A DNA stretch of 1,567 bases from Escherichia coli (GTDB lineage: Bacteria > Pseudomonadota > Gammaproteobacteria > Enterobacterales > Enterobacteriaceae): assembly GCF_003334385.1 (NCBI RefSeq), contig NZ_QOWN01000111.1. The stretch is one strand, 5' to 3'. The notes below the pieces were generated by a model. It saw only the letters and a list, made by a program, of their open reading frames with translations. It had not been told where the DNA came from and made no database searches. This document shows positions 1,103-1,438 of the stretch, one piece after another (within the stretch, counting starts at the first letter, position 1; each line of letters starts with the position of its first letter). Position numbers and translations under genes: made by a program.

Positions 1103-1192
1103 GCAGAATATTTTGCTGAAAAATGCCGTTGGTCAACGCGGGCGGATAACACGAAGTCCTGTGAACTGGCAAAACCTAAGTGAATAAAAGTA

Positions 1193-1233
1193 AAAACCCC
1201 GTTTGTTGGCAGCAAGCGGGGTTTTGTGTTTTC
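1193..1233 (+). terminator. Intrinsic (rho-independent) terminator-like hairpin, possibly bidirectional
   Basis: Arm AAAACCCCGTTTGTT (1193-1207) pairs with AGCAAGCGGGGTTTT (1211-1225), including a perfect CCCCG/CGGGG core and two G-U pairs, around a 3-7 nt loop. It is followed by GTGTTTTCTG (T-rich). An A-tract upstream (TAAAAGTAAAAA, 1185-1196) would give a U-tract on the minus strand as well. Confidence 0.6.
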
Positions 1234-1238
1234 TGACC

Positions 1239-1266
1239 TTGAGTAAGGCAAGGGAGAAATTATGGT
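1239..1266 (+). promoter_or_regulatory. Weak sigma70-like promoter candidate upstream of the small ORF and Rz
   Basis: TTGAGT (1239-1244), 16-bp spacer, TATGGT (1261-1266); each hexamer matches consensus at only 4 of 6 positions. A second -10-like TATAAA at 1294-1299 has no good -35. Sequence resemblance only. Confidence 0.15.
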
Positions 1267-1323
1267 GAGGGAGGTGCTTTCCCTGTGAGGAAGTATAAAA
1301 GATTCTTTCTGAGGTTGTCCATT

Positions 1324-1437
1324 ATGAAAGGCATTGAAGTGGAGACGCCAGCCAGTCTGGATTTAACAAGAGCGGCAGCTTTTGCCATTCGTATTGTGGC
1401 AATTGCTGTTCTGGTCTGGGCAATCCGTTGGTGGTGA
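1324..1437 (+). CDS. Hypothetical small membrane protein, 37 aa (not in the ORF track)
   Basis: ATG 1324-1326 is preceded by GAGG (1311-1314) at 9-nt spacing and the frame stays open to TGA 1435-1437, 1 nt before the Rz ATG. Translation: MKGIEVETPASLDLTRAAAFAIRIVAIAVLVWAIRWW, an acidic N-terminus followed by a roughly 20-residue hydrophobic segment. The frame is open upstream to 1243, with a possible in-frame GTG at 1285 behind a strong SD (AGGGAGGTG, 1268-1276). No homologue recognised; coding status is uncertain. Confidence 0.3.
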   Translation: MKGIEVETPASLDLTRAAAFAIRIVAIAVLVWAIRWW

Positions 1438-1438
1438 T

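Follow-up and report, generated by a model that had tools for sequence, protein, structure and literature searches.

A small open reading frame (ORF) that lies between the lysozyme gene R and the spanin gene Rz of an Escherichia coli prophage is, judged by its pattern of substitutions, a genuine gene under strong purifying selection. The window analysed here (1,567 nucleotides of contig NZ_QOWN01000111.1) is the lysis region of a lambdoid prophage, and the ORF occupies the end of the 336-bp spacer (1103–1438) that separates the R stop codon from the Rz ATG (1439–1441). Sequence comparisons further indicate that a terminator hairpin, a leader and the ORF form a unit that is mobile among enterobacterial prophages. 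We tentatively favour the view that the encoded protein is a late, non-essential inner-membrane modulator of lysis. The ORF and its family are already known as database hypothetical proteins. Not found described elsewhere are the evidence for selection, the likely 50-amino-acid form of the protein, the mobile hairpin-leader-ORF cassette and the near-universal presence of a small membrane ORF at the R-Rz junction of phage-21-type cassettes.

A small gene under purifying selection precedes Rz

The initial annotation of this stretch had described a 336-bp spacer between lysozyme and Rz, and a 37-codon ORF with a Shine-Dalgarno (SD) sequence whose stop codon lies 1 nt before the Rz ATG. Both descriptions hold: R ends at 1102, Rz begins at 1439, and the ORF has the following layout.

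1324–1437, plus strand: short form of the small ORF, 37 amino acids (MKGIEVETPASLDLTRAAAFAIRIVAIAVLVWAIRWW), with an ATG start, GAGG at 1311–1314 (9 nt upstream) and the stop codon TGA at 1435–1437

The TGA is followed by a single T and then by the Rz ATG, which creates a TGAnATG junction. The initial annotation also described R and Rz as directly adjacent in lambda and phage 21. The two genes overlap in lambda, and likewise in the Qin prophage of E. coli K-12, so the spacer represents extra DNA.

Compared with alleles of about 83% nucleotide identity from prophages with an M15-type lysis cassette (see below), the ORF differs at 23–24 of its 111 positions. Nineteen of these differences fall at codon position 3, four or five at position 1 (Ile/Val/Leu) and none at position 2. 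The ratio of nonsynonymous to synonymous divergence (dN/dS, Nei-Gojobori) is accordingly 0.03–0.04 in these comparisons, where synonymous divergence is saturated, and 0.10 relative to a Citrobacter allele; the two other plus-strand frames yield dN/dS values >1 against the M15-context alleles. Just 3 sites are changed in the 39 nt upstream of ATG 1324, compared with 23 within the 111-nt ORF. Disruptions of the frame, which the initial annotation had named as evidence against a gene, are nearly absent: 79 of the 80 best IMG/VR loci recovered with a family profile have an intact ORF, and in the remaining locus it is fused to the gene that follows. A frameshifted allele with a 4-nt deletion (L038) occurs in a separate sample of loci anchored on R.

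A minus-strand ORF (1388→1260, 42 amino acids) could in principle be the conserved frame, with the plus-strand ORF as its shadow. The third codon positions of the two frames coincide, the minus-strand frame is open here and also in several relatives, and its dN/dS is 0.11–0.21; the Citrobacter comparison gives about equal values for the two frames (0.288 against 0.296). However, the sense frame is lower in the M15-context alleles (0.046–0.087 versus 0.11–0.21), with the minus-strand value about 2.3 times that of the sense frame in all of these comparisons (L007, L101 and L104). Moreover, the minus-strand ATG is lost in L007 (Met to Ile), a stop codon interrupts the frame in L104, its replacements are radical (I/T, I/R) where those in the sense frame are I/V/L, and it has no SD sequence. 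That the frame is open can be explained by a sense protein without Tyr, His or Gln codons. We therefore rejected the minus-strand ORF as a true gene and consider this explanation hardly credible.

Although described as 'unannotated' in the initial annotation, the ORF is listed as ECs_1094 in prophage Sp4 of E. coli O157:H7 Sakai and as WP_000675931.1 ('hypothetical protein') in RefSeq, where the identical protein occurs in many E. coli genomes, and the ORF is also annotated as a coding sequence in the Shiga toxin (Stx) phage GER2. A profile search recovered 303 relatives in Escherichia, Salmonella, Klebsiella, Cronobacter and Citrobacter, all labelled 'hypothetical', a taxonomic breadth that comes from protein searches. 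Matches were under-reported by tblastn against a phage collection, in which the hydrophobic half of the query was masked, and a degenerate DNA pattern run against species-representative genomes produced chance matches only, in unrelated phyla. A site covering at least 80% of 1103–1567 (the spacer plus the start of Rz) is present in 666 of 5426 complete E. coli genomes.

The family corresponds to PHROG 4493 (related PHROGs 1115 and 3246), all catalogued as of unknown function, which is matched by the 50-amino-acid form with E = 1.4e-24 and by the 37-amino-acid form with E = 5.5e-16. No match was found in Pfam, NCBIfam or PADLOC with the 37-, 50- and 60-amino-acid forms and the neighbouring small ORFs, in Pfam even at E ≤ 10, and the PADLOC defence models yielded no family at E ≤ 1. 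Similarly, no functionally annotated PHROG matched the small protein. Full-text literature searches with the peptide sequences, the WP accessions and ECs1094 returned no paper that names the protein, and the supplements of a Ribo-seq study of small genes in Sakai do not mention the ORF.

Two candidate start codons

A longer form of the ORF, which begins 13 codons upstream of ATG 1324, is preceded by a short overlapping frame.

1285–1437, plus strand: long form of the small ORF, 50 amino acids, (M)RKYKRFFLRLSI followed by the 37-amino-acid form (MKGIEV...), with a GTG start

1262–1288, plus strand: mini-ORF of 8 codons (MVREVLSL), with the SD sequence GGGAG at 1252–1256 and a TGA that overlaps GTG-1285 (GTGA)

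The 50-amino-acid product, which had been listed earlier as an alternative to the 37-residue peptide, is probably the ancestral full-length form. With the start at GTG-1285, the PHROG 4493 match scores 87 bits rather than 59 and covers profile positions 1–54 of 56. Two window-type IMG/VR alleles carry ATG at codon 1285, and relatives of 56–60 amino acids from Salmonella, Klebsiella and E. coli start with ATG and the sequence M[RK]KY[KR]R. Alignment of the N-terminal extension with family A2 (60 amino acids; see below) reveals synonymous first-position changes (AGA/CGA, CTG/TTG), a 3-nt indel and conservative replacements (Phe to Ile or Leu, Ser to Thr). The internal Met at 1324 and its GAGG are kept across the family, and both the 50- and the 37-amino-acid products may be made. 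A 1-nt indel closes the upstream frame in the Citrobacter allele, which should therefore yield the 37-amino-acid product only.

The leader might add a layer of control. The SD sequence of the long form, AGGGAGG (1268–1274), is predicted to be sequestered in a hairpin in which AGGGAG (1268–1273) pairs with UUCCCU (1279–1284). The A2-type leader has a plain SD sequence and ATG; the GTG start, the mini-ORF and the SD hairpin all stem from 23 nt inserted relative to that leader. Variants with this insertion in E. coli, Citrobacter and Salmonella retain the mini-ORF, which could function in translational coupling or in regulation by the leader.

The product resembles a tail-anchored membrane protein

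Consistent with the membrane-type product and single hydrophobic segment proposed from the initial inspection, the protein has one hydrophobic segment, at residues 31–47 of the long form, although its summed central-scale dGapp of about −0.7 kcal/mol is marginal. The segment contains a conserved Arg/Lys, and its N-terminal flank has a net charge of +4. AlphaFold2, with an alignment of 25 sequences, predicts a helix at residues 22–49 (predicted local distance difference test score ~89), a short N-terminal helix at residues 3–14 (low confidence) and then a disordered acidic linker. By the positive-inside rule, the product would be a tail-anchored inner-membrane protein with its N-terminus, namely the basic N-terminal helix and the acidic linker, in the cytoplasm and the terminal RWW at the periplasmic face. 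Residues that never or hardly ever vary are concentrated at the helix's cytoplasmic end, in the motif R-A-x-A-F-A-I-[RK]-x-V-A, a pattern more suggestive of a specific contact than of a generic membrane anchor.

The protein does not have the architecture of a spanin: its transmembrane (TM) helix is C-terminal, only ~3 residues lie beyond the helix, and there is no lipobox. The spanin of this prophage is the Rz/Rz1 pair encoded downstream. We also considered a small i-spanin that partners the lipoprotein of 51–60 amino acids encoded in M15-type cassettes. This candidate was rejected because a 37-amino-acid protein with a C-terminal helix cannot span the periplasm.

Hairpin, leader and ORF travel as a mobile cassette

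The terminator-like hairpin reported in the initial annotation was recovered by a terminator scan, and homology boundaries place it within a larger unit.

1193–1235, both strands: intrinsic-terminator hairpin (hairpin 1193–1225) with a flanking A-run and U-run, identified by terminator scan and folding

1186–1442 (approximate), plus strand: mobile cassette of ~260 bp composed of the hairpin, a ~60-nt leader and the small ORF, delimited by lenient blastn homology boundaries

The stem of the hairpin is G+C-rich and has 15 pairs; GTGTTTTCTG comes after it, and an A-run lies 5' of it. This combination of a 5' A-run and a 3' U-run should permit the terminator to act on both strands. Lenient blastn detects homology to unrelated contexts (an M15 lysis cassette, a Klebsiella baseplate operon and the end of a Cronobacter tailspike gene) that starts at 1179–1194 and ends at 1442–1446. 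Judged from these limits, the hairpin is the left end of the mobile cassette, and the hairpin-leader-ORF unit is mobile among enterobacterial prophages. The cassette was found in the following settings.

Context 1 (E. coli, Citrobacter): class II holin, (YdfR), signal-anchor-release (SAR) lysozyme, cassette, Rz

Context 1, Salmonella: an orthologous but diverged arrangement in which the holin and the lysozyme are of other types and a methylase gene sometimes lies between the ORF and Rz

Context 2: two holins, M15 peptidase, (93-amino-acid ORF), cassette, 1 nt, gene for a lipoprotein of 51–60 amino acids (PHROG 7528)

Context 3: holin, GH108 endolysin, LT-II enterotoxin genes, cassette

Context 4: Klebsiella myovirus-type prophage, with the cassette ahead of the sheath-initiator and baseplate genes

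Context 5: Cronobacter, with the cassette after an S74 tailspike gene and beside an O-antigen acyltransferase gene, and no gene downstream

The M15-type context is very common in E. coli and includes the inducible phage phiSTEC1575-Stx2k. In all four kinds of lysis cassette, the small gene is co-oriented with its neighbours and tightly packed, after the endolysin gene and before a spanin or small lipoprotein gene. The companion elements are preserved as well. A CCCCG...CGGGG hairpin with A- and U-runs is located 52–74 nt upstream of a −10-like element in the first codons in five of the five other contexts inspected, and the ORF ends with RWW-TGA in every context whose upstream sequence was inspected. 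Fifteen hairpin variants include compensatory double changes in 3 of 8 stem pairs, indicating that the hairpin structure itself is under selection.

Several of these cassettes have peculiarities of their own. The protein of 51–60 amino acids encoded in M15 cassettes (PHROG 7528) carries a lipobox (LLVG↓C) and two additional Cys residues (L007, 2149–2331; L009, 2682–2837; L094–L101, 2616/2643–2798), and its gene starts 1 nt after the small-ORF stop codon in some M15 alleles. The M15-peptidase lysis cassettes showed no Rz-like i-spanin. The hairpin of L104 is degenerate, with a run of G, and the lipoprotein gene downstream of its ORF looks decayed. In prophages of enterotoxigenic E. coli, the LT-II enterotoxin A and B genes lie between the GH108 endolysin gene and the cassette (L102–L106, ~780–1925; cassette at 2501–2614), meaning that the endolysin-to-spanin junction also carries major toxin cargo.

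The slot before Rz is nearly always filled by a small membrane ORF

The occupancy of this junction was evaluated with 80 IMG/VR loci picked by similarity to R alone and thus blind to the ORF, 70 of which contain the end of R as well as the Rz start. R and Rz are separated in each of these 70 loci, by 297–1898 bp; the full set of 81 loci analysed contains 60 distinct spacer sequences. Every one of the 70 spacers opens with a conserved stretch and the hairpin, and in 67 the segment from the hairpin to Rz carries at least one intact small membrane ORF (family A, A2, B or C). Family A is the ORF of the window or a 28-amino-acid, N-terminally truncated copy of it, and family A2 has 60 amino acids. 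Family B (43–49 amino acids, PHROG 4906) includes ECs_5722 in Sakai prophage Sp9, and family C (32–45 amino acids, PHROG 6632) is represented in phage H-19B; a C2 variant was also seen. The 37-amino-acid gene of the window type is present in 2 of the 70 loci. Longer spacers also hold an antirepressor-like gene, a gene for a 231-amino-acid protein, a methylase gene or an insertion sequence (IS) element.

Among the R-Rz spacers of L006–L093, examples of slot ORFs are located at 2198–2296 in L008, 1854–1985 in L012 and 1695–1924 in L010, and two to four often occur in tandem. Variable sites in family A2 are distributed 3/3/13 over the three codon positions, a clear third-position bias, whereas those of family B (19/20/18) exhibit none. 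The coding status of family B is therefore less secure than that of A and A2. In Salmonella prophage L112, inspection by eye also revealed a hydrophobic ORF of 32 codons (MAAMICFVAAFMLACDGRSGWGWFLLVGLIVM; ~2214–2312) whose start lies just within the lysozyme gene's 3' end, ahead of both the conserved stretch and the hairpin.

The end of the small ORF overlaps the signals for Rz translation.

1430–1441, plus strand: Rz SD-like sequence GGTGGTGAT, including the Rz ATG (1439–1441), built from the last codons of the ORF (W, W, stop)

The TGAnATG junction and the placement of an SD-like sequence within the last codons suggest that Rz is translationally coupled to the ORF, as the initial annotation had proposed. 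This coupling is plausible, but the same RWW-TGA ending is kept where no Rz follows. An IRWW-TGA tail also ends the unrelated family C ORF in H-19B. The narrower idea that the IRWW-stop sequence serves only the Rz ribosome-binding site was rejected, as the tail is retained in Klebsiella and Cronobacter copies that have no Rz downstream.

If coupling were the whole purpose of the ORF, its peptide would be functionless and the ORF would simply carry ribosomes across the terminator spacer to Rz by termination-reinitiation at TGAnATG. The position of the stop codon 1 nt before the Rz ATG and the contribution of the last codons to GGTGGTGAT fit such a device, as do the unrelated families B and C, which also end 1–11 nt before Rz, and the absence of third-position bias in family B. 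A functionless peptide is difficult to reconcile with the strong purifying selection (dN/dS 0.03–0.09) and invariant motif of the family A protein, or with intact genes that lack Rz downstream (Cronobacter) or precede a baseplate gene (Klebsiella). We consider a purely translational role very unlikely.

Promoter-like sites and a putative antisense RNA

A consensus scan of 1103–1438 found no sigma-70-like site on the plus strand. The weak promoter-like stretch mentioned in the initial annotation was thus not recovered in the sense orientation, and the two sites detected are both on the minus strand.

1321→1292, minus strand: promoter-like site TGGACA-18 nt-TATACT, 10 of 12 consensus matches, antisense to the 5' end of the gene

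1136→1107, minus strand: second promoter-like site TTGACC-18 nt-AATATT, 9 of 12 matches, just after the R stop codon and pointing into R

Shuffled sequence is expected to contain 1.2 such sites, which places the 1136→1107 site within chance. The site at 1321→1292 would, hypothetically, give an RNA of ~95–115 nt that starts near 1285 and ends at the hairpin. Copies from E. coli, Salmonella, Klebsiella, Cronobacter and Citrobacter all preserve both of its hexamers, which overlie the conserved K-Y-K (Lys-Tyr-Lys) and L-S-I (Leu-Ser-Ile) codons. The bidirectional terminator is located ~60–70 nt from this site and, like it, is present in every context. The predicted RNA folds into three hairpins (z = −3.0), and the low z-score derives mostly from the terminator. 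No peak at the Sp4 copy (ECs1094) is present in the orphan-RNA table from Hfq cross-linking and analysis of cDNA (CRAC) in Sakai, from which an RNA that does not bind Hfq would escape.

Such an RNA is reminiscent of the type I toxin-antitoxin system hok/mok/sok, in that a small hydrophobic protein is combined with an overlapping upstream frame and possibly with a short antisense RNA over the leader. A toxin-like peptide was among the options in the initial annotation. In its most specific form, the product would be a membrane-depolarising protein, paired with a constitutive antisense RNA of ~95–115 nt, and the mini-ORF would be coupled to it as mok is to hok. By pairing with the leader, the mini-ORF and the long form's SD sequence and start codon, the antisense RNA would keep the toxin off until it is outcompeted by late transcription. 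The size of the protein (37 or 50 amino acids) and its hydrophobic C-terminus (helix 22–49) fit this class, and a mini-ORF and an SD-sequestering hairpin are present. The 10-of-12 promoter-like site has hexamers kept across the copies of five genera, the terminator with runs on both sides always accompanies the ORF at a near-constant distance, as an antisense terminator should, and the putative RNA folds into three hairpins. The small number of changes in the 39 nt before ATG 1324 (3 sites, compared with 23 in the 111-nt ORF) is a further point in its favour.

Other points weigh against such a module. The antisense RNA is known by prediction alone and is missing at ECs1094 from the Hfq-CRAC catalogue, while coding constraint on the K-Y-K and L-S-I codons can by itself explain why the hexamers are conserved, and the terminator accounts for most of the low z-score. 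The hydrophobicity of the TM segment is marginal, and a conserved Arg/Lys lies within it. Furthermore, there is no predicted plus-strand toxin promoter, the E. coli A2-type leader (direct ATG) lacks the mini-ORF and SD hairpin, and the gene is embedded in-line in late operons rather than free-standing. The protein has no sequence similarity to the hok/mok/sok components. A toxin of this type therefore strikes us as rather improbable.

One known RNA initially appeared relevant to the spacer. EcOnc12, a highly ranked Hfq-bound orphan RNA (Tree et al. 2014), has a promising spacing, but was rejected as a spacer RNA because it maps downstream of Rz in Sp9. Specifically, it lies on the minus strand at 1779522–1779569 of Sakai (L290), ~75–120 nt downstream of Rz, between Rz and a YlcI/YnfO-family gene and on the opposite strand, a placement that assumes agreement between the coordinates of the 2014 table and those of NC_002695.2. 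Equal-scoring copies of EcOnc12 are EcOnc11 (Sp10) and EcOnc10 (Sp12). Likewise, the known prophage small RNAs (sRNAs) of enterohaemorrhagic E. coli (AgvB, AsxR and the Pas sRNAs) were rejected as spacer content, as they are located upstream of the holin gene instead.

A cassette unlike a classical moron

Classical morons of lambdoid phages (Juhala et al. 2000), such as bor and lom of lambda or gene 15 of HK97, lie between their own promoter and a downstream terminator and are expressed by the prophage. The initial annotation had raised a moron-type insertion as a possibility. What stands of this proposal is the discrete mobile cassette found in non-homologous contexts: extra DNA located between genes that are adjacent in relatives, which moves as a unit and includes a factor-independent terminator. 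The arrangement of signals does not conform, because the sole strong terminator (1193–1225) is upstream, no promoter of its own is predicted, and the ORF runs straight into Rz.

These observations bear on the hypothesis that the gene is a lysogenic-conversion or superinfection-exclusion moron. Its product would be made in the lysogen and might, for example, block the entry of phage DNA as HK97 gp15 does, with the position before Rz serving as a permissive hotspot. The mobility of the cassette and its presence at cargo-type sites (near a tailspike gene and an O-antigen acyltransferase gene, in a tail operon and beside LT-II toxin genes) are compatible with this hypothesis, as is its absence from lambda and Qin. 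Moreover, antirepressor genes, DNA methylases, IS elements and toxin genes are also found in the R-Rz slot. However, the upstream terminator and the lack of a predicted promoter between hairpin and ORF are the opposite of the classical layout, PADLOC yields no defence match, and the filling of 67 of 70 slots by a small membrane ORF favours a role related to the slot over random cargo. We view a moron of this kind as unlikely, in about the same measure as a type I toxin.

A possible late function in lysis

Lysis by phages of Gram-negative hosts is usually explained by a holin, an endolysin and a spanin. In four kinds of lysis cassette, the small gene follows the endolysin gene and directly adjoins the spanin or lipoprotein gene. 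This placement and the almost constant occupancy of the slot point to a role at the end of infection. Likewise, an upstream terminator, the lack of a predicted promoter and co-orientation with the late operon make late-only expression the simplest model. We thus favour, with reservations, a late, non-essential modulator of lysis that resides in the inner membrane. Such a role would agree with the accessory lysis-timing factor suggested in the initial annotation, for which position and slot occupancy speak.

The model that we infer combines late-only expression, the predicted topology, two isoforms, coupling to Rz and an effect on lysis. The gene would be silent in the lysogen, with a terminator directly upstream and no predicted plus-strand promoter, an insulation that would suit a product harmful to the growing cell. 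Expression would occur only by antiterminated (Q-modified) late transcription through the hairpin, along with that of R and Rz/Rz1. Translation would start at GTG 1285 to produce the 50-amino-acid protein and at ATG 1324 to produce the 37-amino-acid protein, and would end 1 nt before the Rz start codon, within the Rz ribosome-binding site, so that Rz translation is probably coupled. The protein could then adjust when or how efficiently lysis occurs, through the pinholin, the SAR endolysin or the spanin.

In Sakai prophage Sp4 (L291, 1182130–1186375), the holin-lysozyme-ECs1094-Rz-pchA segment is inverted relative to the upstream esterase gene and flanked by IS629. This rearrangement probably cuts the Sakai copy off from the late promoter.

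A number of points weigh against a role in lysis. Lambda and K-12 Qin have overlapping R and Rz genes and no such gene between them, meaning that the gene is not essential for lysis in general. Two contexts, the Klebsiella baseplate operon and the Cronobacter post-tailspike site, lie outside lysis cassettes and fit a cargo gene as well as a lysis factor. A terminator in the baseplate operon would be polar unless the phage antiterminates, suggesting that the hairpin may terminate inefficiently. Our promoter scan was a simple consensus search, which a real but weak or non-consensus plus-strand promoter could escape. The Pfam, NCBIfam and PADLOC searches revealed no similarity to holin, antiholin, releasin, spanin or defence families, and the literature and data searched contained no expression, localisation or phenotype data for the family.

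Precedents in principle for a lysis modulator of this type are provided by three small membrane proteins. Lcc6 of Shewanella phage LambdaSo is an extra inner-membrane lysis factor that is essential for lysis (10.1101/2024.01.23.576932). Mu releasin, as cited in that same paper (10.1101/2024.01.23.576932), is a small membrane protein that acts with a SAR endolysin, and ORF52 of phage BSPM4 is another small membrane protein that serves as an extra lysis factor (PMC11657625). Such proteins can be required for lysis or can tune its timing. Like the protein studied here, Lcc6 is a small single-pass membrane protein of a lambda-like phage with a pinholin, a SAR endolysin and Rz-Rz1. However, Lcc6 has 65 amino acids, an N-terminal TM domain and a cytoplasmic tail, and its gene is far from the lysis genes, whereas the present protein has a C-terminal TM helix, is encoded inside the lysis cassette and is not generally essential; the two have no apparent sequence relation. 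Unlike Mu gp25 releasin, the small protein has no DUF2730 domain, and its cassette also accompanies endolysins that are not of the SAR type (M15, GH108).

Lysis cassettes can also encode paired isoforms. Lambda S107/S105 and phage 21 S71/S68 arise from dual in-frame start codons, where the longer form adds positive charge at the N-terminus; S and S' are annotated in lambda. At the sequence level, the small ORF resembles these pairs as a lysis-cassette membrane protein with two candidate in-frame starts, of which the upstream one would likewise add N-terminal positive charge. It differs in that the starts are 13 codons apart rather than 2–3, a single TM helix is predicted rather than 2–3, no Pfam holin model is matched, and a bona fide class II holin is already encoded upstream.

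A more elaborate proposal builds on this resemblance, and we regard it as quite unlikely. The unit would be a self-insulating, late-only membrane-effector cassette whose 50- and 37-amino-acid isoforms are antagonistic and set the time of lysis in the manner of a holin and antiholin, with families B and C as its analogues. Five basic residues would hold the N-terminus of the 50-amino-acid form in the cytoplasm, while the bidirectional hairpin would both block read-through in the lysogen and end a cassette-encoded antisense RNA. If true, such cassettes would constitute a fourth, interchangeable class of components in lambdoid lysis cassettes besides the holin, endolysin and spanin.

Whichever function applies, the family is present in the lysis cassettes of very many E. 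coli prophages, including Shiga-toxin phages, in which the timing of lysis sets toxin release. The 260-bp cassette, with its defined boundaries, two candidate start codons and inducible carrier phages, offers a concrete experimental target. Should the gene be a passenger only, the R-Rz junction would be a recombination hotspot for small membrane-protein genes and cargo such as the LT-II toxin, antirepressors and methylases.

Other features of the window

The remaining features of the window are as follows.

13–150, plus strand: 3' end of a class II (phage-21-type) holin gene, from the ORF list and RefSeq annotation

155–505, plus strand: YdfR/DUF1327 gene, between the holin gene and R

569–1102, plus strand: R, a phage-21-type SAR lysozyme of 177 amino acids (stop TAA 1100–1102), from the ORF list; labelled 'lysozyme' in RefSeq

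1103–1185, plus strand: R-linked conserved non-coding stretch directly 3' of R, outside the mobile cassette

1439–1567, plus strand: 5' part of Rz (i-spanin), translated as MNRVLYGVLIALLLGCGSLWLATDHYRDNAITYK, which exits the window; labelled 'lysis protein' in RefSeq

Relatives of Rz match Pfam Phage_lysis, and R has 599 relatives in IMG/VR. An Rfam search of the entire window gave just two matches, both below threshold: one similar to a rimP leader, which corresponds to the terminator only, and one similar to GcvB, which is located outside the spacer. The weak GcvB-like match (minus strand, 392–562) reached 19.9 bits (E = 0.1), where the gathering score is 42, and includes UUAAGGUUGUGAU. Its plus-strand counterpart at ~491–505, at the 3' end of ydfR and in the gap between ydfR and R, is ATCACAACCTTAAT. 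The sequence ATCACAACCTTAAT resembles the CACAAC-type target or mimic of the GcvB R1 seed that is used by the prophage anti-sRNA AgvB; the Rfam models for AgvB and AsxR themselves found no match in the window.

The conserved stretch at 1103–1185, for which an Rfam search gave no match, is retained at 87–97% identity in Stx phages and in prophages with other small ORFs, and at ~64% identity in lambdoid prophages of Salmonella. Its first 23 nt after the R stop codon (1103–1125, GCAGAATATTTTGCTGAAAAATG) recur at 100% identity directly after the lipoprotein gene of an M15-type prophage (L009, 2850–2872), with homology stopping on both sides of those 23 nt. This repeat looks like a junction or recombination sequence common to lysis-cassette modules.

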